In this document: positions 10,524 through 51,178 of the stretch, piece after piece
Layout: each line of letters starts with the position of its first letter
Position numbering within the stretch: position 1 is the stretch's first letter
Assembly: GCA_964429695.1 (NCBI GenBank)
Contig: CAYSCS010000003.1
Coordinates: 6,704-70,703, forward strand
Direction: 5' to 3'
DNA: 64,000 nucleotides
From: an uncultured Eubacteriales bacterium
GTDB lineage: Bacteria; Acidobacteriota; Aminicenantia; Aminicenantales; Aminicenantaceae
Translations under genes and position numbers: made by a program
Notes under the pieces: generated by a model
Told to the model about the DNA's origin: nothing
The model's input: only the letters and a program-made list of their open reading frames with translations
Databases searched by the model: none

Positions 10524-10735
10524 TCTATCCTTTTTTTAATAAATATTACTACCTCTTCCAAGAGTAAGTCAAAAAATATCCCTTCTTCTGGCTAAAGATT
10601 TCCCCCTCAAAAGGTGAGGTCGAGAAGATGAATATCACCCCATTTTTCACCCGCAAAGGCGATTGACCAATCCCTTGCGAAACTTAAAATCAGAAAAGAA
10701 AATCATGAAGGGAATTTCTCTGAAAGGCTCATCGA

Positions 10736-11212
10736 ATGAAAAACAGCAAGGATAAGAACCGAATGAAAGTTCTTCTTGCCGAGGATGAAACCATTTCCTG
10801 CAAAGCCCTTGAAAAGGATATAAAAAACTGGGGGTTTGAAGTCATTGCCACTCATGACGGAAAACAGGCGTGGGATACACTGCACAAGGAAGAGATCAGT
10901 ATTGCCATCTTAGACTGGTTGATGCCTGGTATGAGTGGCATCGAGCTGTGTAAAAAAATTCGCAGGGAATATCCAAGGGATATCTACATCATTCTTTTAA
11001 CCGGGAAGGATGAAGAAGATGATATCTCTCAAGGAATTGAGGCCGGTGCTGACGATTACATGACTAAACCATTCAGCTTCCTGGACTTAAAATTAAGACT
11101 CGAAAATGCTAGAAGAGAAGTCAAGCTAAAAGGAAGCAGGAAAATATGGAAAAACACATGCCCGTTGGAGGAGATTGAGAAAGTAAATTCGGGAAATAGT
11201 AAGGCACCTTAA
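10736..11212 (+). CDS. Single-domain CheY-like response regulator.
   Basis: It contains KVLLAEDE...ILDWLMPGMSGIELCKKIR...ILLTGK, i.e. a receiver fold with its phospho-acceptor Asp and conserved Lys. Confidence 0.8.
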   Translation: MKNSKDKNRMKVLLAEDETISCKALEKDIKNWGFEVIATHDGKQAWDTLHKEEISIAILDWLMPGMSGIELCKKIRREYPRDIYIILLTGKDEEDDISQGIEAGADDYMTKPFSFLDLKLRLENARREVKLKGSRKIWKNTCPLEEIEKVNSGNSKAP

Positions 11213-11261: not shown

Positions 11262-12068
11262 ATGAATGAGAAGATGATGCTTAGAGTGTTGGAAGAAATT
11301 GATAAAATCCATGGGTTTGATGCGAGGCACTACAAGCTTTCCACGCTCAAGAGACGCCTCTGCCTCCGACTCCTGGCAACTCAGACTAATTCATATGAGG
11401 AATATCTCAATTTTATAAAGAAAAACCCCTCAGAATGCGAAAAATTCCTGGAAACATTGACCATCAACGTCACAGATTTCTTCCGTGAGAAAAATGTTTT
11501 CCTCTCCCTTAAGCAAAAAATCCTTCCCGCCTTACTCGATAGTCTCTCCAGGAAAAAAAGAAAAACCCTTCGCGCTCTCTCTATCGGGTGTGCAGAGGGA
11601 CAGGAACCATATTCTCTAGCCATTATCCTGAGCGAAATCAGGGAAAAAATGGAGAGTAAAATTAAAATTTTTATCCATGCGACTGATATAAACAGGAATT
11701 GCTTGTCTCGAGCCAAGAAGGGAAGGTATGGAATGAATCAGGTTAAAAGCGTGCCTCGAACATATCTTCTCCGCTATTTTCAAAACCATAAAAATTCATT
11801 CGAAGTAAAACCGAGCATAAAAAAAATGGTTAGGTTCAAAAGGCACGACATCATAAAAGGCAATAATCTAGGGAAATTTGACCTCATTTTGTGCCGAAAT
11901 CTCTTCATCTTTTTTGAATCTGAACTTCAAGTTTTCCTCTTGCAAAAGATTCATTCTTATCTAAGAAGCAGGGGAATCCTGATTCTCGGAAGTTGCGAAT
12001 TCCCTAAGATTGAAGGTCTTTTCCGCCCTCTTTCTGCAAGAGAAAGGATTTATGAAAGGTTGAATTAA
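11262..12068 (+). CDS. cheR: CheR-type protein-glutamate O-methyltransferase.
   Basis: The CheR N-terminal helical domain is followed by a SAM-MTase domain with [21 protein letters not shown] and [13 protein letters not shown]. The stop lies 1 nt before the hybrid kinase start. Confidence 0.8.
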
Positions 12069-12069
12069 A

Positions 12070-15000
12070 ATGGCTCCCATGGAAGGAAAGGGAAAGGAAA
12101 TCGTCTCCTTCGATCAACTCATCGAGACACTCGGGGAAGATATACTCTCCTTGAAAAAAATTTGTACTGATATCGAACAGACCCGGCGCAACATACATCA
12201 AAAGCATAATGAAATGCTTCTTCTCCATTCAAAACTTGAAGCCCAGGAAGAATTGAAGGCAATGAATGAAGAGCTCGAGGCAACCACAGAGGAACTTAAA
12301 GCCGCGAATGAAGAACTCCGTGTCATGAATGAGGCATTAAAAGAAGCCCAGAAAAAACTGGAGGAAGAAAAGGCTTATCTTGACCAGCTCTTTGAAAGCG
12401 CTCAGGAAGCAATCGTGATGATAGATGGCGAAGAAAGAGTGATCCGGGTCAATGGGGAATTCCTCAAAGTCTTCGGATATTCAAAAAATGAGGTGATGGG
12501 GAAAAAAATTGATGACCTTGTGGCGCCTCAAGAAAATCATGAGCAAGCGGTTTCAATCACCCGAAAAGTTGCTGGCGGAGAGAAGGTTGCCTTCGAAGCT
12601 TTAAGAAGACGTAAAGATGGGACCTTGATCAACGTCTCGGTGCTCGCCTCTCCCATCCTCATCGATAATAAGCTCCAGGCAACCTATGCCATCTACCGTG
12701 ACATCACTCAGGAGAGAAAATTCTTCGAAAAACTCAAAGAGTCGGAAAAGAGATTTCAGGACATTGCCCTCAGTTCAGGAGACTGGATCTGGGAAACCGA
12801 TAGAGAGGGACGCTTTACCTATGTCACAGGCCGGGTTAAAAACTTCCTTGGCTATGAGCCTGAAGAAGTTCTGGGAAAAAAATTCTCCGATTTCATGCCA
12901 GAGGAGGAGGCTCTTCGAGTTACTCCAATTTTTAAAAGAATCGTCTCAGAAAAAAGTCACATCGAAGATTTTGAATGCTGGTGTCTGACAAAGGAGGGAA
13001 AAAGAGGCTGCCTCCTTATCAGCGGTGTCCCCGTAGTGAATGAGAAGGGAGAGCTTTCTGGTTATCGGGGAGTCACCAAAGACATAACTGCTCAAAAGAT
13101 GATGCAAACTTATCTTCGGGAGAGCGAGGAGAAATACAGGATGGTAATCGAACAGAGCGCAGATTGTATTTATGTTATGGAGATCGAAACAAAGAAGATT
13201 CTAGACTCCAACAATTCTCTTCGAGCTCTCCTTGGATACACCCTGGAGGAAATAAAGAGACTCACCATCTACGATTTTCTCGCCCTTCCTCGAGAAGAAA
13301 TAGAAAGAGACATCGTGGAGACAAAAGCCAAGACAAAACTTCTCCTTGGAAAACGGCCCTACAAAAGGAAAGACGGAACAGTTGTGGAGGTTGAAGAAAG
13401 TTCAAGCCTGATAAACTATGGAGGGAAAGAGGCACTCTGCTTTGTGGGAAGGGACCTTTCTTTAGACTCTGTAAAAGTAAAAGAATTGATTCAGAGAGAA
13501 GCAAATAAACTCTCGACGATGATTTCAAGTTTTGAAGAAGGAATAATCTTCACTGACTCAAGAGATTCTATCGTTGAAGTCAACGAATATTTTTTAAGAC
13601 TTATAAAAAAAGAAAAGAAAGAGATAGTTGGAAAATCTTTCTGGGAGTTAGAACCGCTGCTCAGACTCCTGGAGAACGAAGAATTGAAATCTAAGATATC
13701 AAATTTTAAGGAGTCCATACCCGCACCTCCTCTTTCTCTTCAGAAATCGTTGAATGGGGTGGAGGCAATCTTCCGCTTTTATCCCATTTATCACAGGGAA
13801 TGTTACCAGGGCTTTATCTTAAAAATCACAGATGTCACCGAAATCGTAGAAGCTAAGAAGCAGGCTCAGGCCGCATCTCAAGCAAAAAGCCAATTTCTGG
13901 CAAACATGAGTCATGAAATACGCACCCCTATGAACGGGATCTTGGGTATGACTGAGCTGGCCCTCAACACAAACCTCACCCCCGAACAGAGAAAATACAT
14001 AGAAGGAATAAAATCATCCGCCGAATCTTTGATGGATATCATCAATGACATCCTCGATATCTCCAAGGTTGAAGCCAGGAAATTTGAAATCGAAAAAACG
14101 CCCTTCAATCTCCATGAACTTATTTATGAGACAGTTTCCTCTCTCTCTTACCAGGCTTACAAAAAGAAGCTTGAGCTGGCCTGTAAAATTCCTCCTGAGA
14201 TTATTAAGGAAGTAATCGGCGATCCTGTAAGATTACGTCAGGTTTTGATAAATCTTCTCTCCAATGCCATAAAATTCACTGAAAAAGGCGAAGTACTTCT
14301 AGCAGTAAAAGAAGAAGCAAAGAAACAAGATGAAGTGATGCTTCATTTTTCGGTTAGCGATACAGGCATAGGAATTCCTGAAAATAAGCTCGAGATAATT
14401 TTTGACTCCTTTGTTCAAGCGGATGGTTCCATGACCAGGAAGTTTGGAGGAACAGGCCTCGGACTCGCCATCTGCCGCCAGTTTGTTGAACTCATGGGAG
14501 GAAAAATCTGGGCTGAGAGTAAGGTTGGAGAAGGTTCAACTTTTCACTTTATCCTTCCTCTTAAAATAGGAAACCAGGCTGAAGATGAAATTCTTCCTAG
14601 TGAAGAATTTAAAGGGCTTACAGTCCTCATTGTTGACGACAGCCCCAAGAGTCGGAGCATCTTAACAGAAATTTTGAAGAGCTGGAAAATGAAACCCACA
14701 GAAGCAGATTCAGGAGAGGAAGCGAGGGCCTTGATCGAAAGAGCAAAAAGCGCGGGCAACCCCTTTTCTATGGCAATCATCGACGCCTATATGCCTGGGA
14801 TGGACAGTTTCATCATTGCCCAAGAACTCAAGCATCACTCTGAGCTTGCCAAATCAACGATAATCATGCTCAGTGCTGCAGAGAATAAAAACGATGCCTC
14901 TCCTTGGCAAAGATTAGGAATAACTTCCTTCATCACCAAGCCCATAAACCAGAAAATCCTGTACAGGGAAATGCTCAAGATTGTTGGAAATAAAAAGGAA

Positions 15001-15450
15001 GAAGACTCAAGAATCCCTGAAATTTCAACACCTCAACATGCCCCCTCCCGCGAGTGTTACAGAATCCTCCTTGCTGAAGATAATATCATCAACCAAAAAG
15101 TTGCTTTCTACATGCTTGAAAAACTTGGGCATCAAGTCAAAGCCGCCCACAATGGCGAGGAAGCAATTTCTGCCTTGGAAAAAAACATCTTTGATTTAAT
15201 CTTGATGGACGTTCAGATGCCCAAAATGGATGGCTTTGAAGCCACAGCTATTATCAGGGAAAAGGAAGCAAAAACCGGTAAGCATATTCCTATCATTGCC
15301 ATGACAGCTCATGCCATGAAAGGGGATCGAGAAAAATGTTTGGAAGCTGGAATGGATGATTACATCTCCAAACCTCTCAACTCAGACGAGCTCTCCAGGA
15401 CTATAGAAAGAGTGATGAGGAAGTTCAAAGAAAACCAAAAAAATCGATAG
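12070..15450 (+). CDS. Hybrid sensor histidine kinase with five parts: a coiled coil with NEEL repeats, three PAS/PAC domains, HisKA, HATPase_c and two receiver domains.
   Basis: The N-terminal coiled coil reads [34 protein letters not shown]-like blocks follow. The H-box is [21 protein letters not shown], and the ATPase part shows DTGIGIP and [10 protein letters not shown]. The two receivers are [10 protein letters not shown]...[10 protein letters not shown] and [12 protein letters not shown]...[12 protein letters not shown]. Confidence 0.9.
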
Positions 15451-15455: not shown

Positions 15456-16376
15456 ATGAAGCACTCAAACCTTAAAATTCTCATCGCAGACGATGACATC
15501 GTTTCTCGTAAAATGCTGGAAAAGGCTCTCAAAGATTGTGGATATAAATTAGTCATCACTCGGAATGGAGAGGCAGCCTGGGAGGCCCTTATTGAAGACA
15601 AAGACATTCAATTGATAATTCTTGATTGGATGATGCCCAAAATTGATGGAATTGAACTATGCCGCAAGATACGTAATTTGAACAAGGATAAAAATACGTA
15701 TACCTACATCATCCTCCTCACCTCTAAGGACACGCCAGAAGATGTGCTCAAGGGCCTTTCTTCGGGAGCAGATGATTATATAACCAAGCCCTTCCATCAT
15801 CTTGAGTTAAAGGCTCGCTTGAATACGGGTATCAGAATCATCGAACTTCACAATAGGCTTACCCAAGACAGTCTCACCAAACTTCCCAACAGAAATAAAA
15901 TAATTCAACACCTGGATGAAGAGTTAAATAGAAGCTTGAGGGAAAAAAAGCCAGTGGGGGTGATAATGGCTGATATAGATAATTTTAAGATGATTAACGA
16001 TACCTATGGCCATCAGGTTGGAGATGAGGTGTTGATTGAAATTGCTTCTCGTCTTCAAAGAAATCTTCGGCGTTATGATAAAATTGGACGTTACGCAGGT
16101 GACGAATTGCTGATTGTCATCCCCAACTGCAAACATTCAAACCTCAAAGGTATCGCTGAAAGGTTAAGGAAAAATGTCAGCGACAATAAAATAACCACAG
16201 GTGCTGGTCTGCTTGAAGTTACGCTAAGTTTAGGGTGTGCTTCATCTGAGCATTTCCCTTTCATTTCCACCGGGGAACTCATCAAAGCCAGCGACGAAGC
16301 CCTGTACATGGCAAAAAGAAACGGTCGCAACTGTGTAATCGTGAGTAAAATAAGTACTTCTAAAATAGAGGATTAA
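15456..16376 (+). CDS. Response regulator with a GGDEF domain whose A-site is degenerate (AGDEL) and whose RxxD I-site is intact.
   Basis: The receiver domain reads KILIADDD...ILDWMMPKIDG. The GGDEF domain contains RRYDKIGRYAGDELLIVIP. Confidence 0.85.
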   Translation: MKHSNLKILIADDDIVSRKMLEKALKDCGYKLVITRNGEAAWEALIEDKDIQLIILDWMMPKIDGIELCRKIRNLNKDKNTYTYIILLTSKDTPEDVLKGLSSGADDYITKPFHHLELKARLNTGIRIIELHNRLTQDSLTKLPNRNKIIQHLDEELNRSLREKKPVGVIMADIDNFKMINDTYGHQVGDEVLIEIASRLQRNLRRYDKIGRYAGDELLIVIPNCKHSNLKGIAERLRKNVSDNKITTGAGLLEVTLSLGCASSEHFPFISTGELIKASDEALYMAKRNGRNCVIVSKISTSKIED

Positions 16377-16377
16377 A

Positions 16378-16725
16378 ATGAATGAAAATGATTATTCGAA
16401 AAAAGATGCCCCCATTGATTTTTCCTCAGCCCTGGAAAGAACAGGAGGGGATAGGTCCTTTCTCATGGAACTCATCAATCTTTATCTAGATGATTTCAAG
16501 CAGAAATTTGAGGAGTTACAGAAAGCAATTACTGAGGGAAATTTCTCCTCAATCCAGGAACTCGGGCACAGCCTCAAAGGAGCTTCTGCAAACTTAAGCA
16601 TGCCATATTTGCAAATTGCTTCTCATACTATGGAGCTCGCGGGAAAAGAGAAAAACATAGAAAAAGCCCAAAAGACACTCCAGCTTTTGGAACAAGAATT
16701 TAAAAGATTGAATGACTTCCTCTGA
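16378..16725 (+). CDS. Hpt (histidine phosphotransfer) domain protein.
   Basis: It is 115 aa with an HSLKGASANLSM motif, which I read as the HxxKG phospho-His signature. Confidence 0.7.
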   Translation: MNENDYSKKDAPIDFSSALERTGGDRSFLMELINLYLDDFKQKFEELQKAITEGNFSSIQELGHSLKGASANLSMPYLQIASHTMELAGKEKNIEKAQKTLQLLEQEFKRLNDFL

Positions 16726-17098
16726 TTCATTCTGGTGCGCTAAAGAAATGATGAAAAGGGAAAAAACAAGAAAAGAGAAAGTATCAAAGAATCGAGTTTC
16801 CTCTATAAATGAATTGATTCCGCTTTACCTCGAAAATGTCCACCTTTATCTTGTCACCCTAAGGCGTGCTCTTGATGAAGAAAATTTTGACGAAATCGAA
16901 AATATAGGTCACAAGATGAAAGGCTCGGGAAAAAGCTTCGGTTTTGAGAGAATCTCAGAATTGGGAAAAGAAATTGAGGAACGTTCCAGAGAAAAAAATA
17001 AAAATACACTCAGAAAGCTGGCCAAAAGTATGGAGGATTATCTTTCTGATGTGTATCCGCCGCTTAAATCTTCAGATGAGAACAGAAAAACGATTTGA
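16712..17098 (+). CDS. Second Hpt domain protein.
   Basis: The Hpt motif GHKMKGSGKSFGF is present. It sits in tandem with the first Hpt gene, with a 14-nt overlap. Confidence 0.65.
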   Translation: MTSSDSFWCAKEMMKREKTRKEKVSKNRVSSINELIPLYLENVHLYLVTLRRALDEENFDEIENIGHKMKGSGKSFGFERISELGKEIEERSREKNKNTLRKLAKSMEDYLSDVYPPLKSSDENRKTI

Positions 17099-22569: not shown

Positions 22570-22977
22570 ATGAGAATTAACTTATCCCAAAAAAAAATAA
22601 GAAATCCATTAGTCCAAAAAGTCCAGGAACTCAGCGGCCAAAACCTTCTTGCCTGCTACCAGTGTGGAAAATGCTCTGCTGGGTGCCCAGCTATCTCTGA
22701 GATGGATATTCTCCCTAACCAGATTATTCGTTATGCTCAACTAGGCCTGAGCGATGAGCTTTTAAGGTCGAAAGCGATCTGGATCTGCGCTTCATGTTTC
22801 ACCTGCAACGCTCGTTGTCCAAAGGGGATTAATATAGCTGAAGTAATAGAAGCCTTGAGACAGATACTCCTCCGCAAGAGGGAGGACCACGTTAAAATTG
22901 AAAAACTCTCTGAGAAGGAAAAGAAAGAAGTCCCTCCCATTGCCCTCATCAGCAGTTTTAGAAAGTTTACTTCCTAA
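22570..22977 (+). CDS. hdrC: Heterodisulfide reductase subunit C-like protein with two [4Fe-4S] clusters.
   Basis: The two cluster motifs are CYQCGKCSAGCP and CASCFTCNARCP. Size and context match HdrC. Confidence 0.8.
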   Translation: MRINLSQKKIRNPLVQKVQELSGQNLLACYQCGKCSAGCPAISEMDILPNQIIRYAQLGLSDELLRSKAIWICASCFTCNARCPKGINIAEVIEALRQILLRKREDHVKIEKLSEKEKKEVPPIALISSFRKFTS

Positions 22978-23037
22978 CGAGAAGCGGGTGTATGGAAAAA
23001 GAAATCATTAATTATTTAATTAAAATAAGGTCTAATA

Positions 23038-23916
23038 ATGAAAATAAGTTATTATCCTGGCTGTACCCTGAAGAACCATGCAAAAAATTTTGAAGATTCA
23101 ACCCTTTGTGCCCTAAAAGCTCTAGGCATAGAAGTCGAAGAACTGCGGCGTTGGAACTGTTGTGGAACAGTTTTTTCCTTAGCCACGGATGATTTAATTC
23201 ATCATCTGGCTCCCATCCGAAACCTCATCAGAGTCAAGGAATCTAATTCTAACCGAGTAATGACCCTCTGCGCCATGTGCTACAATACCTTGAAAAGAGC
23301 GAATGAAAGACTCAAGCAAGACCCAGTAAGCCTCGAAAAAATTAACAAATTCATGTACCTAGAGAAAATCGATTATGAAGGAGATGTGAAAATCTTTCAT
23401 CTTCTAGAATTTTTGAGAGATGAGATAAGCTTCGAGAATATTAAGAAGAAAGTAATTAAGCCCCTGAATAATCTGAAAGTAGCGAATTATTATGGATGTC
23501 TCCTGATAAGACCCAAAGAAATAGGCTTCGATGATGTTGAAAATCCTGTGATAATGGAGAATTTAATGCTTTCCCTGGGCGCTACACCCATAGATTTTCC
23601 TTACAAAACAGAGTGCTGTGCAGCCTATCAGACTGTTGACAAACCAGAAATTGTGGCAGAGAGAACCTTCCAGATCATCACTGCGGCACGGCTCCACGGA
23701 GCTGAAGTCCTAGCAGTGAGCTGTCCTCTCTGCGCCTTCAACCTCGACCAAAGGCAGAAAAAAACCCTGGAGAAATATCCTGATTTTAAAATTACCCCAG
23801 TCCTTTATTTCACGCAGCTCATGGCCATAGCACTCGGTTGCAAGGAAAATGAACTGAGATTAGACCTCCATTATATAGACCCTAAGCCTATTCTTGAAGA
23901 AAAAGGTCTGATATGA
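23038..23916 (+). CDS. hdrB: Heterodisulfide reductase subunit B-like protein with two CCG domains.
   Basis: WNCCGT..., YYGCLL... and ECCAAY are the hallmark CCG-domain Cys patterns. Confidence 0.85.
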   Translation: MKISYYPGCTLKNHAKNFEDSTLCALKALGIEVEELRRWNCCGTVFSLATDDLIHHLAPIRNLIRVKESNSNRVMTLCAMCYNTLKRANERLKQDPVSLEKINKFMYLEKIDYEGDVKIFHLLEFLRDEISFENIKKKVIKPLNNLKVANYYGCLLIRPKEIGFDDVENPVIMENLMLSLGATPIDFPYKTECCAAYQTVDKPEIVAERTFQIITAARLHGAEVLAVSCPLCAFNLDQRQKKTLEKYPDFKITPVLYFTQLMAIALGCKENELRLDLHYIDPKPILEEKGLI

Positions 23917-23923
23917 GGCTCAA

Positions 23924-24199
23924 ATGATTTACTTTGGAGATTTAAAAGAGAAAAAGGGAAAAATCCATATCAACAGGGATAGATGCAAAGGATGCGGATT
24001 TTGTGTGGAATATTGCCCTAGAGATGTGCTCGAAATGTCAGACGAATTCAACATCAAAGGATATCATCCTCCCTTTGTCAAAAACGAGGAAAAATGCCTC
24101 TATTGTCAACTTTGCGAGGCAATATGTCCTGAATTTGCCATATTTGTGACTCTCAAGAAAGAGGAGGAAGAAGGTGAAAAAGGTGAAAGCCGACCCTAA
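23924..24199 (+). CDS. korD: 2-oxoacid:ferredoxin oxidoreductase delta subunit (2x[4Fe-4S] ferredoxin).
   Basis: It is 91 aa with the motifs CKGCGFCVEYCP and CLYCQLCEAICP, immediately upstream of the alpha, beta and gamma subunits. Confidence 0.7.
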   Translation: MIYFGDLKEKKGKIHINRDRCKGCGFCVEYCPRDVLEMSDEFNIKGYHPPFVKNEEKCLYCQLCEAICPEFAIFVTLKKEEEEGEKGESRP

Positions 24200-25340
24200 G
24201 GGAGTCTTAACAGGCTCACATTACTTAGACGGAGATTATGCCATCGCCGAAGGAGCCCTTGCTGCAGGTTGTCGCTTTTTTGCTGGTTATCCTATTACTC
24301 CCTCCACTGAGACGGCTGAACGGTTTGCCGAAAGGATTCCGATGGTGGGAGGGATTTTCATTCAGATGGAAGACGAAATTGCCTCCATAGCAGCCCTGAT
24401 TGGAGCAGTATGGGGCGGGATGAAAGCTATGACGGTGACCTCAGGACCAGGATTCTCGTTAATGATGGAGAACATAGGGCTCGCCTGTATGCTGGAAACC
24501 CCTCTTGTCATCGCCAATGTCCAGAGAGGAGGACCCTCCACCGGGCTTCCTACTCTTACCGGGCAGCAGGACATGATGCAAGTAAGATGGGGTTCCCACG
24601 GTGACTATGAAATAATTGCACTTTCTCCTGATTCCCCTCAGGAATGCTTCGACCTTACCATAAAAGCTTTCAATCTTTCTGAAATGTACAGGGTGCCAAC
24701 CTTCATCATGACCGATGAATGTGTGGGGCACATGCATGAGAAGGTAGTCATCCCTCCTGCTGAAGAAATAGAGCTTGTAGAAAGGAAATGGTACACCGGC
24801 CCCAAGGATAAATATCTTCCTTTTAAACCTGATAAAGATATGATTCCTTTCATGGTTAAAGTAGGGGAAGGTTATCGCTTTCACATCACAGGACTCACCC
24901 ATGATGAGAGAGGCTATCCAGTGATTAATGCCGAATGCCAGAATAAATGTGTCCCTCACTTGGTGGATAAAATAAAGCTCAATGCAGAAAAAATAATCGA
25001 GTTTCAAGAAGATGAAACCGATGACGCAGAGGTTGTTGTGGTCTCCTATGGGATAACTTCTCGGGTTTCTATAAGAGCCGTTCAACAAGCCCGAAAAGCA
25101 GGCATAAAGGTAGGAACACTGAGGTTGATTACTGTCTGGCCTTTCCCTGAAAGAAGAATAAGAGAGCTAGCAGGAAAAATAAAGGCCTTTGTGGTTCCAG
25201 AAATCAACTATGGTCAAATGGTCTATGAAGTAGAAAGATGCGCCGCAGGTAAAGCTTCTGTGTACCATGTACCCCACTGCGGTGGTTGGGTTCACGACCC
25301 CAAAGATATTTTCAAGGTTATCAAGGAGGCAGCAAAATGA
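24174..25340 (+). CDS. korA: 2-oxoacid:ferredoxin oxidoreductase alpha subunit.
   Basis: This 388-aa protein has the POR/KOR alpha fold signature (GYPITPSTE, GFSLMMENIGLACMLETPLV). It overlaps the delta and beta genes. Confidence 0.85.
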   Translation: MKKVKADPKGVLTGSHYLDGDYAIAEGALAAGCRFFAGYPITPSTETAERFAERIPMVGGIFIQMEDEIASIAALIGAVWGGMKAMTVTSGPGFSLMMENIGLACMLETPLVIANVQRGGPSTGLPTLTGQQDMMQVRWGSHGDYEIIALSPDSPQECFDLTIKAFNLSEMYRVPTFIMTDECVGHMHEKVVIPPAEEIELVERKWYTGPKDKYLPFKPDKDMIPFMVKVGEGYRFHITGLTHDERGYPVINAECQNKCVPHLVDKIKLNAEKIIEFQEDETDDAEVVVVSYGITSRVSIRAVQQARKAGIKVGTLRLITVWPFPERRIRELAGKIKAFVVPEINYGQMVYEVERCAAGKASVYHVPHCGGWVHDPKDIFKVIKEAAK

Positions 25341-26209
25341 AAGAAGAAGATCGCCTCGAAGAAAGAAATCCAATTGAAGATTTCCTCAGGATGGACAGAA
25401 TTCCCCATATTTGGTGTCCGGGCTGCGGGATTGGAACTGTTGTCAGCTCCTTTGCTGAAGCGCTTCGCAAGAGCAAGCTTAATCTGGATAAAGTAGCCAT
25501 TCTTTCGGGAATCGGGTGCACAGGCCGGGTGGCTGGATACGTCAAACTCGACTCCATCCACACCACCCATGGCCGAGCCATTCCTGTAGCCACAGGAGTG
25601 AAGCTGGCGAATCCTGAGCTCAAGGTTGTTGTCTTTAGTGGAGACGGAGACATAGTAGGAATTGGAGGAAACCATTTCATTCACGCAGCAAGGAGAAACA
25701 TGGACCTCATCGTCATCTGTGTCAATAATTTCAATTACGCGATGACAGGAGGACAGGTAGCAGCTACGACTCCCATCTTAGCCAATCTTTCCACAGCACC
25801 TTACGGGAATTTCGAATATCCCTTCAATCTCCCCTATCTCGCCGAGGCTTCAGGTGCTACCTATGTGGCTCGCTGGACAGCACTCCACTTAAGACGAGTG
25901 ACCAAATCCATTCAAGAAGCCTTGGAACACAGAGGCTTTTCCTTTATAGAGGTCATCACTCCCTGTGTGACCCTTTATGCAAGAAGAAACCGGCTTGGGG
26001 ATGGGCTGAATCTTCTCAAATACTACTATGAGAATTCAGAAATACAACACGGAGCAGATACGCGTACTCTGGATATTTCCTACCAGGGGAAAATCATCGT
26101 GGGTAAATTCGTCCACAAGCAAAAGCCCACTTTCCTTGATTGTATGAATGAGCATCTCTCCAAAGTGTTGGGAAATAAATATAAACCCTATGGAGTAAGC
26201 CATGACTGA
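25337..26209 (+). CDS. korB: 2-oxoacid:ferredoxin oxidoreductase beta subunit (TPP-binding).
   Basis: WCPGCGIG is near the N-terminus, and the TPP motif GCTGRV...VVFSGDGD is present. I prefer the Met at 25337 (RBS AAGGAGG, ATGA overlap with the korA stop) to the longer 25286 track ORF. Confidence 0.85.
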   Translation: MKEEDRLEERNPIEDFLRMDRIPHIWCPGCGIGTVVSSFAEALRKSKLNLDKVAILSGIGCTGRVAGYVKLDSIHTTHGRAIPVATGVKLANPELKVVVFSGDGDIVGIGGNHFIHAARRNMDLIVICVNNFNYAMTGGQVAATTPILANLSTAPYGNFEYPFNLPYLAEASGATYVARWTALHLRRVTKSIQEALEHRGFSFIEVITPCVTLYARRNRLGDGLNLLKYYYENSEIQHGADTRTLDISYQGKIIVGKFVHKQKPTFLDCMNEHLSKVLGNKYKPYGVSHD

Positions 26210-26792
26210 GATAAGGTTTTCAGGTTTTGGAGGACAGGGAATAATTCGCTGTGGCTTGATAGCCGGAAAGGCACTTTCTCTCTTCGATAATAAGCATGCC
26301 ACAATGACTCAAAGCTTCGGTCCTGAGGCAAGGGGAAGTGCATGTAGCTCTCAGCTTGTCGTCTCTGAGGACCGTGTCCTTTATCCTTACATCACCAGAC
26401 CTGAAATCCTCGTAGCCATGTCTCAGGAAGCCTATGATAAATATGAGCCAGAGCTTCGAGAAGGAGGTATTCTAATCATAGACAGGGACCTAGTTAAACC
26501 CAAGGCCTCCAAGAGAAATATCAAGATTTATTCCATACCTTCCACTCGTTTTGCTGAAGAACTTGGTAACCGCATCATAGCTAACTTAGTCATGCTTGGG
26601 TTTTTCACTGCAATCACAGGGGTTGTCTCTCCAGAGGCCATGAAAAAGGCCCTTCCTGGACTTGTTCCCCAAAGATTTCTCGACCTTAACATCAAAGCGT
26701 TTGAAAAAGGTTACGATTATGGAATGGAAGTCCTCGCCGCAGAGAAGGACACGGAAAAGAAATCTCAGAAGAAAGAAAAGCCTCAGACCTGA
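26202..26792 (+). CDS. korC: 2-oxoacid:ferredoxin oxidoreductase gamma subunit.
   Basis: This 196-aa protein has a POR/KOR gamma-like N-terminus, IRFSGFGGQGIIRCGLIAGKA. Confidence 0.8.
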   Translation: MTEIRFSGFGGQGIIRCGLIAGKALSLFDNKHATMTQSFGPEARGSACSSQLVVSEDRVLYPYITRPEILVAMSQEAYDKYEPELREGGILIIDRDLVKPKASKRNIKIYSIPSTRFAEELGNRIIANLVMLGFFTAITGVVSPEAMKKALPGLVPQRFLDLNIKAFEKGYDYGMEVLAAEKDTEKKSQKKEKPQT

Positions 26793-26806
26793 GGGAGAGG
26801 ATTAAG

Positions 26807-28753
26807 ATGAGGAGAACTGGAGTATTTGTTTGTCATTGTGGAATAAACATCGCAGGAACAGTAGATGTTAAAAAGGTAGCCAAAGAGCTCTCCACCCATC
26901 CCAATGTGGTTCATTCTGAAGACTACGTTTATATGTGTTCTGACCCCGGCCAAAACTTAATCAGCAATGCCATTAAACAAAAAAAACTCGATAGCGTAGT
27001 GGTCGCCTGCTGTTCCCCTACCCTTCACGAATCAACCTTCAGAAACTGCGTTAAATCAGCCGGAGTAAATCCTTTCCATTGTGAAATAGCAAATATTCGT
27101 GAACAATGCAGCTGGGTCCATAAAGAGATGGAAAAGGCGACAAGTAAGGCCATAAAAATAACTAGAAGCACCGTGGAGAAAGTGACGCGCAACGAGCCCC
27201 TTGAACCAATAAGTGTCCCAGTGACCAAAAGGGCACTGGTAATTGGAGGAGGAATCGCAGGTATTCAGGCCTCGCTCGACCTTGCTAACAGCGGTTTCGA
27301 GGTTGTTCTTGTCGAAAGGTCACCCTCCATTGGAGGGCACATGATCCAGCTCTCAGAAACATTTCCTACCCTTGATTGTTCTCAATGCATCCTGACACCA
27401 AAGATGGTGGAAGTCGCCAAACATCCTAAGATAAAACTAATGACCTACAGTGAGGTTCAGGAAGTCTCGGGATATGTAGGAAACTTCAGGGTCAAAATAC
27501 TCAAGAAACCCACCTACGTGGATCCCGATAAATGTACCCTCTGCGATGAATGTACTAAAGTCTGCCCTGTAGTCACAGAAAATGAATTCGACTTAGGCCT
27601 CACTGGCCGTCGCGCCATATATATCCCATTTCCTCAGGCCATCCCTGCCTCTTATACCTTGGACATAAACTCCTGCCCCGGTCTTTTGCCCATTGCTTGT
27701 GGAAAGTGTGCCGATGTCTGTGAGCCAAAAGCCATAGATTACGACATGAAGCCAAAAATCATAGAAATGGATTTTGGGGCCATAATTGTCGCTACCGGTT
27801 ACGACCTCTATGGAAAGGAAAACATGGCAGAATACGGTTATGGAAAGTACCCTGATGTCATAGATGGCCTTCAATTCGAGAGACTCTGTTCTGCTTCAGG
27901 CCCAACGAAAGGAAAAATTCTCCGCCCTTCTGATCATAAAGAACCCAAAGAAGTAGTCTTCATTCAGTGTGTAGGCTCTCGCGACCCTGAAATGCATTGC
28001 TCCTATTGCTCAAAGATTTGCTGCATGTACACGGCGAAACATGCCATGCTCTATAAGCATCATGTTCCAGATGGCCAGGCTTATATCTTCTACATAGACA
28101 TAAGGTCTGGGGGGAAGGGGTATGAAGAGTTTGTTCAGAGGGCAGTGGAAGAAGATAGTGTCCTGTATCTTCGCGGTAAAGTCTCCAAAATATTTGAAGA
28201 AAGAGGAAAGATAAGGGTCTGGGGCGTAGACACCTTATCCGGAAAAGACATCGAAATAGACGCCGACATGGTGGTTCTGGCCATGGCCATGAGACCCTCA
28301 AAAGGAGCAGAAGAATTAGCCAAGAAACTAAAGATTGCGCTGGATAAGGATGGTTTTCTTGCCGAGGCCCATCCCAAACTAAGACCTGTGGAAAGTGTTA
28401 CCTCTGGGGTTTTCCTCGCTGGCGCAGCCCAAGCTCCTAAAGATATTCCAGAGGCCGTTGCTCAAGCAAGCGGCGCAGCCTCAAAGGCAATAGCCATATT
28501 ATCCCAGGAAAGGCTATTCCATTCTCCCACTGTGGCCAAAGTCAACACAAATCTCTGCACAGGTTGTGGAATGTGCGTCTCTGTATGTCCCTATGAAGCC
28601 CTCTCCCTTAAAGATGGAAAGGTGGAAGTAAAAGAAGTTCTTTGCGAAGGATGTGGAACATGTTCAGCAACATGCCTGAGGGCAGCGATTCAGGTAAAAA
28701 ACCTGACGCCAAGACAAGTCTACGATATGATTAACGCCTCCCTCGGAGGATGA
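26807..28753 (+). CDS. hdrA: Heterodisulfide reductase subunit A-like flavo-iron-sulfur protein.
   Basis: It has the typical HdrA start MRRTGVFVCHCGINIAGTVD, the FAD motif VIGGGIAGIQASLDLA, several CxxCxxCxxxCP clusters and the inserted ferredoxin domain. Confidence 0.9.
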   Translation: MRRTGVFVCHCGINIAGTVDVKKVAKELSTHPNVVHSEDYVYMCSDPGQNLISNAIKQKKLDSVVVACCSPTLHESTFRNCVKSAGVNPFHCEIANIREQCSWVHKEMEKATSKAIKITRSTVEKVTRNEPLEPISVPVTKRALVIGGGIAGIQASLDLANSGFEVVLVERSPSIGGHMIQLSETFPTLDCSQCILTPKMVEVAKHPKIKLMTYSEVQEVSGYVGNFRVKILKKPTYVDPDKCTLCDECTKVCPVVTENEFDLGLTGRRAIYIPFPQAIPASYTLDINSCPGLLPIACGKCADVCEPKAIDYDMKPKIIEMDFGAIIVATGYDLYGKENMAEYGYGKYPDVIDGLQFERLCSASGPTKGKILRPSDHKEPKEVVFIQCVGSRDPEMHCSYCSKICCMYTAKHAMLYKHHVPDGQAYIFYIDIRSGGKGYEEFVQRAVEEDSVLYLRGKVSKIFEERGKIRVWGVDTLSGKDIEIDADMVVLAMAMRPSKGAEELAKKLKIALDKDGFLAEAHPKLRPVESVTSGVFLAGAAQAPKDIPEAVAQASGAASKAIAILSQERLFHSPTVAKVNTNLCTGCGMCVSVCPYEALSLKDGKVEVKEVLCEGCGTCSATCLRAAIQVKNLTPRQVYDMINASLGG

Positions 28754-29178
28754 AGATGAGAGAAGATTTTGAGCCAAAAATTATGGCATTCCTCTGCAAA
28801 TGGTGTTCCTCGGCAGGAAGTGACCTCGCTGGAGTCTCTCGGATGGAATATCCGCCCAACGCAGTCCCAATTACTGTGATGTGCTCGGGAAGTGTCTCAC
28901 CCCTATACATTTTCAATGCCTTCAAAAGAGGGGCAGATGGAGTGCTTGTCTCAGGTTGTCATCCTGGTGATTGCCATTATATAAAAGGAAACTATTATGC
29001 ACGCCGAAGAATAGCCCTCGTGAAGAAACTCCTTGAATTCATAGGCCTTGAACCCCAGAGGTTCCAAATGTCTTGGGTTTCCGCAGCTGAAGGCCTCAAG
29101 TATACCCAGATAATCAAGGACTTCGTAAAAGAAATAAAACCCCTTGGACCCCAAACTAAGCTGAGGAGAGAAAAGTAA
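28750..29178 (+). CDS. mvhD: MvhD/FlxD-like protein (methyl-viologen-reducing hydrogenase delta-subunit family).
   Basis: MAFLCKWCSSAG...MCSGSVSPLYIFNAFKRGADGVLVSGCHPGDCHY is the canonical MvhD motif set. Confidence 0.85.
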   Translation: MKMREDFEPKIMAFLCKWCSSAGSDLAGVSRMEYPPNAVPITVMCSGSVSPLYIFNAFKRGADGVLVSGCHPGDCHYIKGNYYARRRIALVKKLLEFIGLEPQRFQMSWVSAAEGLKYTQIIKDFVKEIKPLGPQTKLRREK

Positions 29179-30209
29179 TGGTTAATCCTGAGGAACTTAA
29201 AAATGAAGCCAAGAAAGCACTGAAAGAAGGGAAAGTAAAATACATCATCGGATATAGAAAAAAACCAGAAGAATCAATGGCTACCCCAGCCTTCATCAGG
29301 AGAGCCGAAGATTCAGAAATTCTTATTTGGGATCCAACGTGCGTTCACAATCTAGTTCGATTCCTGAGTGATGAGAAGAGGAGAAGAAAGAGAGAAAAAA
29401 ACCCTGAACAAAGGCCTGTGGGGATAGTGATAAAAGGCTGCGACAGCCGGGCGATAAACGTGCTTCTCCAGGAGAAATTCATAGCCCGAGAAGATGTTTA
29501 CCTCATCGGCATTTCCTGTGAGGACAATGGAGTTATAGATGAGAAAAAATTACGAAAAAAACTAAACGGGAGAAAAGCCAAAAGAGTCGATTTCAAAGAA
29601 GGACAAGAATTAATCATCGAAACTGAGGAAGGCAAAATTTTCCTTCCTGCCAAGGAAATCCTCGCTGAAAGATGTCTTGAATGCAAAGTTAATTTCCCCA
29701 TAGTATACGATGTTCTTTTAGGGGATAAAACAAAGCGAAAGCCAGAGAAAGAATTCGCTTCAGTTGAAAAATTCGATTCACTCTCAACCTCCCAAAAATG
29801 GGATTTCTGGAAGAATCAACTCGAGAAGTGTATCCGCTGCTATGCTTGCCGGTCTGTTTGTCCCATGTGCTACTGCGATGAATGTGTAGTGGACACCATA
29901 AGCTTTGCCGTGAGCGCGGATACAACGGCAGAGGAAAAGGCAAATAAAATTAAATGGATAGAAAAATCTCCAGTCCTCTCGGAAAACATTGTCTATCATA
30001 TGGTCAGAGCAATCCATCTTGCGGGTCGATGCGTTGACTGCGGAGAGTGCGAAAGAGCATGCCCTGTAAACATCCCCTTGCGTCTTTTGAATAATAAAAT
30101 GGAAAAAGAAGCCAAAGAGCTCTTCGGGTATGAAGCAGGTCTTGATTCTCAACAACCATCCCTCGTTGCCTGTTTCAGAGATGAGGACCCGCAAGATTTT
30201 ATCAGGTAA
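29178..30209 (+). CDS. Fe-S oxidoreductase subunit, AsrA/HydB (sulfhydrogenase-beta)/FlxC-like.
   Basis: CIRCYACRSVCPMCYCDEC and CVDCGECERACP are two [4Fe-4S] motifs whose spacing matches the AsrA/HydB family. It is a paralog of the next gene. Confidence 0.55.
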   Translation: MVNPEELKNEAKKALKEGKVKYIIGYRKKPEESMATPAFIRRAEDSEILIWDPTCVHNLVRFLSDEKRRRKREKNPEQRPVGIVIKGCDSRAINVLLQEKFIAREDVYLIGISCEDNGVIDEKKLRKKLNGRKAKRVDFKEGQELIIETEEGKIFLPAKEILAERCLECKVNFPIVYDVLLGDKTKRKPEKEFASVEKFDSLSTSQKWDFWKNQLEKCIRCYACRSVCPMCYCDECVVDTISFAVSADTTAEEKANKIKWIEKSPVLSENIVYHMVRAIHLAGRCVDCGECERACPVNIPLRLLNNKMEKEAKELFGYEAGLDSQQPSLVACFRDEDPQDFIR

Positions 30210-30214
30210 GAAAG

Positions 30215-31255
30215 ATGGATAAAGTACTCCACAAAAAGGCGTTACCTAAATGGCTTAAAGAACTTGAATCATACGAAATCTATGCTCCTCAAGAAAATGA
30301 TGACCTCTGGAGCTTTGAGTTAGTCAAGTCCTTTGAATTCTTGGATTCAAATTATTCAAACTGCATCCAGTCCCCAAAAAAAATAATCTTCCCTCAAACA
30401 GAGACCCTGCTCAAGTTTGAGAGATTAGAAAATGGAAAGCTCGAGGTTGAAGAACAATTACCAGAAGACAGAAAAAAAGTCATCTTTGGAGTAAGACCTT
30501 GTGACGCAAAAGCACTCACTCTCATGGATAAGGTCTTCACAGGAGATTTCGAAGACCTATATTACACAAAGAGAAGAAACCAGACCACTCTAGTTGGGCT
30601 AGGTTGTAATACTCCCCCCTCTCCACAGTGTTTCTGTGTTTCTGTCGGTGGCTCACCCCATTCGAATGAAGGGCTTGATATTCTGATGACTGACCTTGAA
30701 GATAAATATTACCTTCAATCATTTACCGCTAAAGGCAATGAACTCTTGATCCTGGGAAAGAATATTTTCGAGGAACCGAACCCAGATGAAAAAAGCATGC
30801 TTAAGCGCATTCATCAGGAAGCAAAGAATAAATTCAAAACTAAGCTCCGTGAAATTGAAAAAATACCGGATAAATTAAAAGGAATGTTTGACTCTTCCTT
30901 CTGGGATGAGGAGGCCATGAGTTGCATCCGTTGCGGAATATGTACATATCTCTGTCCTACCTGCCACTGTTTTGATATAAATGATGAAGTTTACTCTACT
31001 TCTTCCCTGAGAGGAAAGCGCATCAGAACCTGGGATACATGCCAGTTCCCTGATTTCACTATGCACTCTTCTGGGCATAATCCACGGCCTGACAAGGCAT
31101 CCCGGCTAAGACAGAGGATTTTTCATAAGTTCCAGTATTTTGTGGAGAAGTTCAATGCCTACCAATGTACAGGGTGCGGAAGATGCATCTCCAAATGCCC
31201 GGTAGGTATAGACATAACCGAAATTCTGGAAAAGGTGAAAAATTATGGCTCATAA
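30215..31255 (+). CDS. Fe-S oxidoreductase subunit, AsrA/HydB/FlxB-like.
   Basis: CIRCGICTYLCPTCHCFD and CTGCGRCISKCPVG are present. The length of about 345 aa is typical of AsrA/HydB. It overlaps the next gene by 11 nt. Confidence 0.6.
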   Translation: MDKVLHKKALPKWLKELESYEIYAPQENDDLWSFELVKSFEFLDSNYSNCIQSPKKIIFPQTETLLKFERLENGKLEVEEQLPEDRKKVIFGVRPCDAKALTLMDKVFTGDFEDLYYTKRRNQTTLVGLGCNTPPSPQCFCVSVGGSPHSNEGLDILMTDLEDKYYLQSFTAKGNELLILGKNIFEEPNPDEKSMLKRIHQEAKNKFKTKLREIEKIPDKLKGMFDSSFWDEEAMSCIRCGICTYLCPTCHCFDINDEVYSTSSLRGKRIRTWDTCQFPDFTMHSSGHNPRPDKASRLRQRIFHKFQYFVEKFNAYQCTGCGRCISKCPVGIDITEILEKVKNYGS

Positions 31256-32069
31256 CCCATACATTCCGAGGCTGGCAAGAATAATTGAAATTAAAGAGGA
31301 AGTAGGCGGCACAAGACCAATCAAAACCTTCAGAACCAAGTTTCTCAACGAAGATGGCTTCTCCTTCCGATGTGGCCAATGCGCCATGCTTTCTGTCTTC
31401 GGCAAAGGAGAATCAATGATCTCCATTTCATCCAGCCCTCTTGAGAAGGAATTTATTCAGTTCAGTGTCCTGAAAATGGGAAGAGTGACCACGGCGCTTC
31501 ATGAGATGGAGGTAGGAGATATCATTGGAATAAGAGGGCCTTATGGGAATGGTTTTCCGATAGAAGAATGGAAGGGGAAAAATCTTATTTTCATCGGCGG
31601 TGGAATCGGACTGGCTCCCATCTGGTCAGTTTTACAAACGGCCCTGGCAAAGAAAGAAGAATATGGAGAGCTGATGCTCATCTACGGAGCCAGAACTTCC
31701 CGAGATTTAGTTTTTAAAAAAGAATTAGAGGAATTAAAAAGAGAGATCAAAGTCCACCTTTCAATCGACGTGGAGGAGCCTGGATGGAAGGAGTATGTTG
31801 GTTTTGTTCCCCTCAACGTGCTTGACAAAAAACCATCGCCAAATAACGCAATTACCGTCACTTGCGGTCCACCAATCATGATTAAATTTGTTATAAAAAA
31901 TCTTCAAGCTCTAGGTTTCCAGGACGATCAAATTTATACTACAGTAGAAAATAAGATGAAGTGTGGAATAGGAAAATGTGGACGATGTAATATAGGGGTT
32001 AATTATGTTTGTAAGGATGGCCCTGTCTATTCTTGGGCTGTGCTAAAAAAACTTCCTCAGGAATATTAG
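31245..32069 (+). CDS. FAD/NAD(P)-binding oxidoreductase with a C-terminal [2Fe-2S] cluster (HydG/AsrB/FlxA/PyrK-like).
   Basis: It has an FNR-like fold (RPIKTF...FRCGQCAMLSV; GGGIGLAPI NAD motif) and a C-terminal CGIGKCGRCNIG cluster. Confidence 0.75.
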   Translation: MAHNPYIPRLARIIEIKEEVGGTRPIKTFRTKFLNEDGFSFRCGQCAMLSVFGKGESMISISSSPLEKEFIQFSVLKMGRVTTALHEMEVGDIIGIRGPYGNGFPIEEWKGKNLIFIGGGIGLAPIWSVLQTALAKKEEYGELMLIYGARTSRDLVFKKELEELKREIKVHLSIDVEEPGWKEYVGFVPLNVLDKKPSPNNAITVTCGPPIMIKFVIKNLQALGFQDDQIYTTVENKMKCGIGKCGRCNIGVNYVCKDGPVYSWAVLKKLPQEY

Positions 32070-32085
32070 AAGAAAGGAGAAAAAA

Positions 32086-32820
32086 ATGGAAGAAAAGAAA
32101 CCTAAGCCAGCTCAAAAACAGAAATACACACCGCTAAAAAATGAAGAAAAAAGAGAATTTGTAACCGTGTTCATCATGGGTAAAGCCTATAAAGTCCCGG
32201 CCGATGCCACAATCATGGGAGCCATCGAATACGCGGGATATCAAATAAAAAGAGGGGCAGGGTGTCGCGAAGGTTTCTGCGGAGCCTGCGCAACTGTTTT
32301 CCGACTTCCCGGAGATTTCAAGATTTATACAGGACTCGCCTGTACCACTCTCGTCAAAGAAGGCATGTGGCTCTCTCAGCTTCCTGCCATCCCTGACAGA
32401 CGCGCCACCTATGACATAAATAAGCTCGTGCCCAGTGTGGTCACCTTCCAGATCCTCTACCCAGAAATTTTTCGCTGCGTCGCCTGTAATACTTGCACTA
32501 AAGCTTGCCCCCAGAACCTAGAAGTCATGGATTATATCCAAGCTGCAATGAGAGGTGATATCGAAAAAGTGATGGACCTTTCCTTTGACTGTCTCTGCTG
32601 CGGGCTATGCGCCATCCGCTGTCCAGCAGAGATAGTCCAATATAATGTGGGGATTCTCGCTAAAAGGCTTTATGGAAAGTATCTTTCAAAGAAAAGCCTT
32701 CAACTTGAAAAAAGAATAAAAGAAATTCAGAAAGGAATTTATGACAAAGAATATAAAAAATTGATGCTTATGAGCAAAGAAGAGCTTAAAAAATTATATT
32801 ATGAAAGAGACATTGAATGA
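32086..32820 (+). CDS. Succinate dehydrogenase / fumarate reductase iron-sulfur subunit-like protein.
   Basis: The N-terminal [2Fe-2S] motif is CREGFCGACATVF. Downstream are CVACNTCTKACP and CLCCGLCAIRCP, the SdhB/FrdB cluster arrangement. Confidence 0.75.
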   Translation: MEEKKPKPAQKQKYTPLKNEEKREFVTVFIMGKAYKVPADATIMGAIEYAGYQIKRGAGCREGFCGACATVFRLPGDFKIYTGLACTTLVKEGMWLSQLPAIPDRRATYDINKLVPSVVTFQILYPEIFRCVACNTCTKACPQNLEVMDYIQAAMRGDIEKVMDLSFDCLCCGLCAIRCPAEIVQYNVGILAKRLYGKYLSKKSLQLEKRIKEIQKGIYDKEYKKLMLMSKEELKKLYYERDIE

Positions 32821-32863
32821 GGAACGAAGAAGAAAAAAAACTTTTAACTTTAAGGAGTAACAA

Positions 32864-50936: not shown

Positions 50937-51030
<94 letters not shown>

Positions 51031-51178
51031 TTAAAATTTCTTGTGTTATTTTAACATTTTTTTCCCTTCGGTCAAAATCTCCTTTTCTTCAAGGAGAAAA
51101 TTTTCTCTCCATTCCTTGAGAATAGAGAAATTTGAAGGTCTTTCTCTTGTTTTTAAGAGGTTATGCTTCAAAAGTTTA

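Follow-up and report, generated by a model that had tools for sequence, protein, structure and literature searches.

A segment of 64,000 nucleotides (nt) from an uncultured Eubacteriales bacterium, placed by GTDB in the Aminicenantaceae (assembly GCA_964429695.1, contig CAYSCS010000003.1, positions 6,704 to 70,703), was analysed and is called the window below; positions are counted from its first nucleotide. The segment between 10736 and 17098 carries six genes, all in one orientation and with short or negative gaps, as read from the list of open reading frames (ORFs) and from Pfam matches. Two of them are the main subject here: the gene of a stand-alone CheR methyltransferase and, directly downstream, the gene of a hybrid histidine kinase whose amino terminus carries a coiled coil made of heptads with the sequence NEEL. 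It is fairly probable that CheR methylates this coiled coil and thereby tunes a phosphorelay to a protein with REC and GGDEF domains. The features of the cluster are the following.

10663 to 10690, forward strand: promoter-like site TTGACC-16-TAAAAT ahead of the first cluster gene, the best consensus match of the region (10/12)
10736 to 11212, forward strand: stand-alone receiver (REC) of 158 amino acids (aa), first cluster gene (Pfam Response_reg 8.9e-27)
11262 to 12068, forward strand: stand-alone CheR protein-glutamate O-methyltransferase, 268 aa (Pfam CheR_N and CheR)
12066 to 12072, forward strand: CheR/kinase junction, TAA, one A, ATG (read from the letters)
12070 to 15450, forward strand: hybrid sensor histidine kinase, 1126 aa, with an N-terminal helix, four PAS, HisKA, HATPase_c, REC and REC (Pfam, phmmer)
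15456 to 16376, forward strand: REC-GGDEF response regulator, 306 aa (Pfam GGDEF 7.6e-47, REC 1.8e-26)
16378 to 16725, forward strand: stand-alone Hpt phosphotransfer protein, 115 aa (Pfam Hpt 1.1e-11)
16712 to 17098, forward strand: second stand-alone Hpt, 128 aa, overlapping the first by 14 nt (Pfam Hpt 1.2e-11)

An earlier note on this DNA placed the CheR stop 1 nt before a hybrid kinase of 1126 aa. Direct reading bears out these coordinates and the junction: the TAA stop codon occupies 12066-12068, a single A follows at 12069 and the kinase ATG begins at 12070. The kinase frame is closed by a TGA at 12061-12063, upstream of this ATG, so that a simple read-through fusion of CheR and kinase is impossible. 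The parts of a multistep phosphorelay are all present, namely HisKA with its H-box, HATPase_c, receivers within the kinase, two Hpt genes and the REC-GGDEF gene. The product of the latter is likely the output of the system, through synthesis of cyclic di-GMP (c-di-GMP). Its signature reads AGDEL, not GGDEF, while the RxxD site five residues upstream is intact; cyclase activity is uncertain because of this signature. The orthologues in loci L002, L007 and L009 have GGDEL or GGDEM, the whole family departing from GGDEF. The receiver coded by 10736-11212 has a short tail, and syntenic relatives code at the same position for REC-GGDEF proteins of 303-309 aa; the GGDEF half of this first protein seems to have been lost in the lineage of the window. 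The total count of promoter-like sites is not above the expectation from shuffled sequence, so that the site at 10663-10690 is weak evidence for a promoter.

The 268-aa CheR matches the Pfam profiles CheR_N (3.7e-10) and CheR (1e-50), both over their curated cut-offs, as well as the solved CheR structures 5FTW (2e-33) and 1AF7 (2.3e-23), and it also aligns with 5XLY. Its S-adenosylmethionine (SAM) binding motif GxGxxEPYS is aligned with ACSTGEEPYT of 5FTW. Residues R31, R32, R36, G109, C110, G113, E115 and Y117 are invariant among 13 clade members; we take the three arginines to lie in the basic, substrate-facing N-terminal helix and the glycine-rich residues to form the SAM motif. With both elements invariant the enzyme looks intact, and its predicted activity is the methylation of glutamate side chains.

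The kinase is organized as follows.

12109 to 12243, forward strand: conserved pre-coil helix, residues 14-58 (family alignment, AlphaFold)
12247 to 12339, forward strand: NEEL heptad array, residues 60-90, with candidate methyl-accepting glutamate pairs 60/61, 67/68, 74/75 and 81/82 (sequence, family alignment)
12379 to 13839, forward strand: PAS sensor array, residues ~104-590 (four Pfam PAS_9 matches, local phmmer; first PAS fold also modelled)
13882 to 14565, forward strand: kinase core, HisKA 605-669 and HATPase_c 717-832 (Pfam)
14623 to 15405, forward strand: two C-terminal receivers, residues 852-967 and 999-1112 (two Pfam Response_reg matches, local phmmer)

Pfam assigns PAS_9 to four stretches and recognizes HisKA (1.9e-22), HATPase_c (1.2e-32) and the two receivers at the residues given; the H-box and both receiver aspartate motifs, read from the sequence, are intact. 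The NEEL peptide quoted in the earlier note is exact and spans residues 60-90, but the kinase does not begin with the repeats as was stated there: the 45-residue helix 14-58 precedes them. L21, D24 and R39 of this helix do not vary among 26 family members and K45 and H46 hardly do, and the segment is possibly used for recognition or docking of CheR.

In the methylation consensus of receptors the second glutamate of a pair is modified, as in Tsr where sites 297, 304 and 311 lie at heptad spacing (PMC1079850). The kinase array matches this consensus strictly with EELEAT (residue 67) and in its relaxed form with EELKAA (74) (PMC1079850), and partially with EELKAM (60) and EELRVM (81). Near-identical arrays are found in methyl-accepting chemotaxis proteins (MCPs) encoded beside related CheRs, for example QEMNATTEEVSST in the MCP of L005, and they likewise follow heptad spacing (QELSSSAQEMNATTEEVSSTVQQ in L005, SEEMNASTEEIAAS in L029 and EENAASAEQTAAAAEEQTAC in L006). 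Over all ORFs of the window (19,586 aa) there are 4 occurrences of the strict motif EExxA[ST] and 8 of the relaxed one, two of the latter heptad-adjacent in the kinase coil. Alignment of 26 non-identical N-termini of the kinase family gives the consensus heptad N-E-E-L-[E/R]-A-[T/S] with 4-5 strict sites. The ten positions of the glutamate pairs make 260 cells in this alignment, of which 231 are Glu (89%), 11 Gln and 14 other residues; Gln is thus the main replacement of Glu (11/25). The Ala, Ser/Thr, Asn and Leu positions of the heptad are nearly invariant. The coil motif together with the gene pairing described below exceeds chance.

An AlphaFold monomer model, built from a 15-row alignment, shows residues 14-110 as one unbroken helix (pLDDT, the predicted local confidence, ~95) that runs into the first PAS domain. 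In the heptad register Asn falls at position a and Leu at d, while the glutamate pairs occupy the exposed positions b and c. Repeated Asn at position a is a hallmark of in-register, marginally stable parallel dimers such as GCN4. Two kinase coils would presumably pair as a parallel two-stranded coil, unlike the antiparallel hairpin of MCPs. A sequence search of the PDB with the coil returned generic or designed coiled coils only, a word-indexed protein search with kinase residues 1-115 gave two matches only, probably owing to low complexity, and a tblastn search of plasmids with residues 1-230 produced a match confined to the PAS part.

Gene neighbourhoods were collected from the loci of relatives and by scanning species-representative genomes with an alignment of CheRs, and were analysed by script. 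In 14 of the 16 readable loci of the Aminicenantes clade (CheR identity 46-57%), CheR is directly followed by a kinase gene of its own whose product has this N-terminal module; these are the window, L001, L011, L012, L013, L014, L015, L017, L018, L019, L020, L021, L022 and L025. None of 11 loci with a distant CheR (<=37% identity) has a coil kinase downstream (Fisher p = 6e-6). Paired loci occupy at least four genomic contexts, exemplified by the synteny of the window, L001, L011 and L049; the first of these, with RF2 and an AI-2E transporter on one side of the cluster and DUF6599, DUF362 and a radical SAM protein on the other, is common to L002, L007 and L009. CheR and kinase genes are separated by 28-53 nt in most relatives and by up to 298 nt (L019), a 1-nt gap being found in the window only. 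CheR ends where stand-alone CheRs end, and the alignment of the kinase N-terminus with 25 homologues starts at the first residues. CheR is therefore a separate gene, as the earlier note had it, and the two-gene form is native, since relatives conserve it. The pairing is frequent and not obligatory in cis.

The sensor part after the coil varies by locus. A PAS domain may follow at once, or a PAS-like domain rich in Cys, or some other domain; GAF domains occur in some loci and not in others. Two unassigned sensor modules recur after the coil in two groups of family members, P0125, P0126, P0132 and P0148 (residues ~100-200) and P0128, P0129, P0130, P0136 and P0137. The motif RVKELNCL...IPPxWxYPE..CARI characterizes one module; the second resembles PAS and has a cysteine cluster CY...H...CPxCP that may bind metal.

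The association of NEEL coils with CheR extends well beyond this clade. A HMMER scan of 1.84 billion representatives with kinase residues 1-105 yielded kinases with the N-terminal module, CheR-PAS-coil-PAS fusions (P0170, P0230 and P0234) and kinases with looser linkers. A metagenome sample was drawn independently of CheR with a degenerate DNA pattern for three consecutive heptads EEL-x-[AST]-x-N, which requires Asn at position a; it consists of the first 120 matches listed and is not a random draw. CheR is coded by the same ORF as the array in 90 of these 120 loci, with CheB in that ORF too (50), elsewhere in the locus (23) or not seen (17). In a further 7 loci a different ORF codes for CheR or CheB, in most cases as the result of frameshifts, and 20 end too close to the contig border to be assessed. 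Among the 100 assessable loci 97 are thus linked to CheR or CheB, and 3 have neither in spite of at least 1.5 kb of upstream DNA. The fused arrays count 3-10 heptads (median 6) of the type N-E-E-L-Q/E-S/T-T/S. A complete CheB-CheR-coil-PAS-kinase protein of 1072 aa is found in L032 (Cytophagales). The metagenome counts and this protein agree with the statement in the earlier note that the NEEL coil marks sensors fused to CheB and CheR. Methyltransferase, methylesterase and a receptor-type array brought together with no receptor domain would most simply be read as enzyme plus substrate.

No other component of a chemotaxis system accompanies the pair. Tblastn searches of the 64-kb window with CheA, CheW, CheB, CheD, CheC and MCP sequences from related che operons gave only cross-hits to REC and ATPase domains. 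Hidden Markov models (HMMs) of CheR, CheB, CheD, CheW, MCP and CheA, run on six-frame segments of the window, detected CheR itself and a weak cross-hit to Hpt. These searches uphold the earlier note, which saw no CheB, CheA, CheW or MCP in the window. Likewise CheA, CheW, MCP, the CheB catalytic domain and CheC are absent from 19 loci of the Aminicenantes clade (251 kb), and a canonical MCP/CheA/CheW set to which this CheR could belong, named in the earlier note as the case that would count against it, appears neither in the window nor in these loci. The possibility that the coil is a diverged MCP signalling domain found no support, the window having no MCPsignal Pfam hit at E <= 0.01 and the local MCP HMM finding nothing there either. 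As CheR adjoins a coil kinase and chemoreceptor genes are missing from the surroundings, its methylation target is probably this kinase.

The earlier note also supposed that demethylation is missing or lies elsewhere. The window indeed codes for no esterase or CheD, while related loci place a CheD gene beside the Aminicenantes-type CheR, divergently oriented, at the following positions of each locus.

L023, 7180 to 7674, reverse strand: CheD
L049, 7831 to 8334, divergent from CheR: CheD
L051, 10001 to 10495, divergent from CheR: CheD

L049 and L050 have a clear CheD-domain gene divergent beside CheR, which is followed by a coil kinase of 1075 aa with seven heptads. The CheD of L023 (Pfam 6.7e-20) is 72% identical to the L049/L050 copy. 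In the lineage of L023, L051 and L052 CheD and CheR sit at the same syntenic site and the kinase is missing there. CheD is a chemoreceptor glutamine deamidase and glutamate methylesterase (PMC3447774). As its gene adjoins those of CheR and the coil kinase in one sister lineage, CheD is a candidate demethylase or deamidase.

The word split in the earlier note could be read as a broken fusion, an origin that the CheR lineage argues against. The closest homologues, at 44-57% identity, are from Candidatus Aminicenantes, and the best 120 of 1080 homologues are nearly all stand-alone proteins of ~260-300 aa with no long multidomain fusion among them. Aminicenantes CheRs are monophyletic in 94 of 100 bootstraps of a neighbour-joining tree, whose deep nodes have no support and in which this clade stands apart from fused CheRs. 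The nearest relatives beyond the clade are stand-alone CheRs, including those of the canonical che operons L005 and L006; that of L005, with P0060, codes for MCP, CheW, CheD, CheY, CheB, CheA and CheC. Identity to stand-alone CheRs from che operons is 41-43% (203-215 bits), against at most 37% (171 bits; median 32%) for 83 fused CheR domains. A recent fission of a CheB-CheR-kinase fusion is thereby rejected, and the spacing of the two genes in relatives, mostly 28-53 nt, does not support a broken fusion either. By sequence, this CheR is not of the fused lineage and the system is not a recently broken fusion. Either a CheR of the chemotaxis type came to serve a kinase with the coil exclusively, or enzyme and kinase have been associated since ancient times; as the deep nodes have no support, an ancient relationship to the fusions is possible.

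On the observed gene anatomy, domain content, conservation of the pair, motif identity and association of NEEL arrays with CheR and CheB, the following mechanism can be put forward. The kinase would dimerise, residues 14-110 of both subunits forming a long parallel coiled coil that enters the first PAS domain, and the PAS domains would set the autokinase activity. From the histidine, phosphate would reach a receiver within the kinase, next a stand-alone Hpt protein and finally the REC-GGDEF protein, changing c-di-GMP synthesis. CheR, whose synthesis is presumably coupled to that of the kinase by the 1-nt junction, would use SAM to methyl-esterify the second glutamate of the E-E-x-x-A-S/T heptads. 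The best candidate acceptors are Glu68 and Glu75, with Glu61 and Glu82 as weaker ones. Neutralisation of these charges would remove repulsion, stabilise the marginal Asn-containing coil and shift the set-point of the kinase as in chemoreceptors. Were methylation tied to the signalling state of the coil, adaptation would result; otherwise the set-point would be coupled to SAM supply. Methyl groups might be removed by an esterase or deamidase encoded elsewhere, CheD being the candidate, or else the modification would turn over slowly. The wider proposal is advanced tentatively, as a possibility with somewhat less than even prospects: a chemotaxis-style adaptation free of receptors, in which a dedicated CheR (with CheD in sister lineages) modifies the heptad glutamate pairs of a PAS hybrid kinase, so that a c-di-GMP phosphorelay would gain a methylation "memory" or a SAM-linked set-point with no need of MCP, CheA or CheW.

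The proposal of the earlier note that CheR methylates the kinase fits the consensus match, the conserved pair and the absence of MCP, CheA and CheW from the window and the related loci; methylation itself is a prediction. Several facts weigh against this reading. The array of the window is degenerate and weaker than the family consensus, with a single strict site and EAL in the fifth heptad. L024, whose CheR is the closest of the genome collection (57%), continues with a HAMP-PAS protein that has no coil; L023, L051 and L052 carry CheR and CheD and no kinase; the coil kinase of L055 (P0130) has no CheR upstream. Kinases P0140 and P0145 feature looser NEEL-like coils between PAS domains with no CheR in the polypeptide, and part of the NEEL motif may be no more than a coil that is favoured as a linker. 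MCP, CheA and CheW were found absent from the 64-kb window and the related loci, and MCPs that this CheR serves may be encoded elsewhere in the genome. The target geometry would be a two-stranded parallel coil, where chemoreceptors offer an antiparallel four-helix bundle, and the presumed output enzyme bears AGDEL instead of GGDEF. We infer methylation of the coil from sequence, in fused and split members alike, and for the system of the window also its sites, its effect on the kinase, the dimeric coil and the c-di-GMP output.

Some of these facts would be expected if CheR served ordinary MCPs encoded elsewhere, its adjacency to the kinase reflecting co-regulation only and the NEEL coil being a dimerising signalling helix. 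This is unlikely. The nearest relatives of CheR outside its clade do sit in canonical che operons (L005, L006), kinases such as P0140 and P0145 do have NEEL-like coils between their PAS domains although they contain no CheR domain, the pairing is broken in L023, L024 and L055, and the absence of other che genes was established for a 64-kb window of the genome. However, the pair is kept in 14/16 loci and four contexts although the sensor domains change, and MCP, CheA and CheW occur in 0/19 related loci over 251 kb. In the metagenome sample 97 of the 100 assessable loci link a strict NEEL array to CheR or CheB, which is unexpected for a generic linker, and conservation within the coil is highest at the glutamate pairs and the Ala and Ser/Thr positions.

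It is rather improbable that the coil and the pre-coil helix serve instead to tether or regulate CheR as a pseudo-substrate, the methyl groups going to a different site of the kinase or to a different protein, or that the coil senses the occupancy of CheR or SAM. The helix 14-58 equals the array in conservation, the array of the window holds only one strict consensus site, and E. coli CheR is tethered by a separate motif of the receptor, a precedent in favour of such a role. Yet the array reproduces the consensus of the catalytic site and not the tether motif (PMC1079850), and fused proteins, which need no tether, bear the longest arrays (3-10 heptads). The glutamate positions moreover vary mostly to Gln, which CheD and CheB convert to Glu in receptors.

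That a sequencing or assembly frameshift, or a very recent mutation, broke one fused gene in two can practically be dismissed: stop and start lie 1 nt apart and fused CheR-coil proteins are the common form elsewhere, but this origin of the split is refuted by the close relatives, which all have two genes with their own starts, mostly 28-53 nt apart, and by the TGA that closes the kinase frame three codons upstream of its ATG, the end of CheR as in stand-alone CheRs, the alignment of the kinase from its first residues with 25 homologues and a CheR that is not nested among fused ones agreeing with this.

The system can be compared with several known ones. It shares with chemoreceptors the methylation consensus at heptad spacing, a genuine CheR and, in the sister lineage, CheD. 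It differs from them in that the kinase has no MCPsignal domain and no hairpin tip, that CheA and CheW are absent and that one polypeptide carries both the array and the kinase which it would regulate. Proteins in which CheB and CheR are fused to PAS and kinase domains are common sensors in genome databases, where they are annotated as two-component CheB/CheR fusion proteins (KEGG cheBR). In these fusions (L032 and the 90 fused metagenome ORFs) as in the window system, PAS comes after an array of NEEL heptads and a CheR enzyme is part of the system, a histidine kinase being shared as well in L032, and the segment that enters the array of the fusions (LQSS-EEL) resembles that of the kinase family. 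In contrast to them, the window has its CheR as a separate gene and of a different lineage, no CheB domain and no PAS_10-type domain between CheR and the coil. The heptads differ too, being E-E-L-x-A-S/T in the window family and E-E-L-Q/E-S/T-T in the fusions. The Wsp pathway, a chemosensory system that controls c-di-GMP, consists of the MCP WspA, the CheR-like WspC, the CheA-like WspE and the REC-GGDEF protein WspR, with CheW-like couplers and CheB. Wsp and the window cluster both have a CheR-type methyltransferase upstream of a REC-GGDEF output controlled by phosphorylation, whereas the membrane MCP, the CheW-like couplers, the CheA-type kinase and the CheB of Wsp are absent from the window. 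CheR-TPR fusions occur in chemosensory clusters of the alternative cellular function class, which retain chemoreceptors and CheA (PMC3447774). Those clusters and that of the window both have CheR amid multidomain REC, kinase, GGDEF and Hpt proteins (PMC3447774), but the CheR of the window has no TPR domain and its cluster no receptor. Judged by its sequences, the system would act in the manner of the adaptation branch of chemotaxis, and it is similar to the CheB/CheR-fusion kinases, but it belongs to neither.

According to the textbooks, bacterial chemotaxis owes its memory to the reversible methylation of glutamates, which to our knowledge is established on chemoreceptors only. The earlier note wrote that the coil is thought to be the methyl acceptor. 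No paper that proposes this was found in a mostly non-subscription literature, nor was any publication on methylation of the coil, on the function or targets of CheB/CheR fusions or on the split form (full texts, with few subscription journals). In the parts of the literature seen, CheB/CheR chimeras receive a passing mention only. The present analysis adds that the link of the NEEL coil to CheR or CheB is nearly exclusive, that this coil reproduces the receptor methylation consensus, and that one phylum keeps the enzyme and its candidate substrate as two co-translated genes, sometimes with CheD alongside. If the reading is true, the two-gene form of the Aminicenantes is a natural, separable enzyme-substrate pair with which the function of the CheB/CheR-fusion kinases might be solved, a vague annotation becoming a direct test with two soluble proteins. 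Ordinary two-component kinases would then gain adaptation or SAM tuning by borrowing modification enzymes of chemotaxis, and methylation would be linked to c-di-GMP control in an uncultured and widespread anaerobic phylum.

Several features elsewhere in the window deserve mention. Two arms of 252 nt at 58296-58547 and 60036-60287 form an inverted repeat, 91% complementary and separated by 1488 nt; a gene of a 229-aa membrane protein lies in its interior (58986-59675), and each arm holds an ORF of ~80 aa, nearly the same in sequence. The whole segment 58296-60287 may be mobile or invertible. A large bacterial signal recognition particle RNA is coded by 56720-56987 on the reverse strand (Rfam, 201.7 bits). 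The stretch 52570-53613 (~1 kb) has no ORF of at least 70 aa on either strand and no Rfam or tRNA match at the gathering threshold. Two tRNA-Ser genes with anticodons GCT and TGA lie on the reverse strand at 50937-51030 and 51179-51268; the ORF 51041-51328 overlaps a tRNA-Ser and is probably not a gene. A small PilZ-domain protein (34707-35138, Pfam 5.2e-10), encoded ~18 kb away from the cluster, might be a receptor of c-di-GMP. A long block of co-oriented redox genes (22570-34531) codes, as judged by eye from the translations, for heterodisulfide-reductase-like proteins, subunits of 2-oxoacid:ferredoxin oxidoreductase and an FAD flavoprotein, a content that would be consistent with an anaerobic lifestyle.

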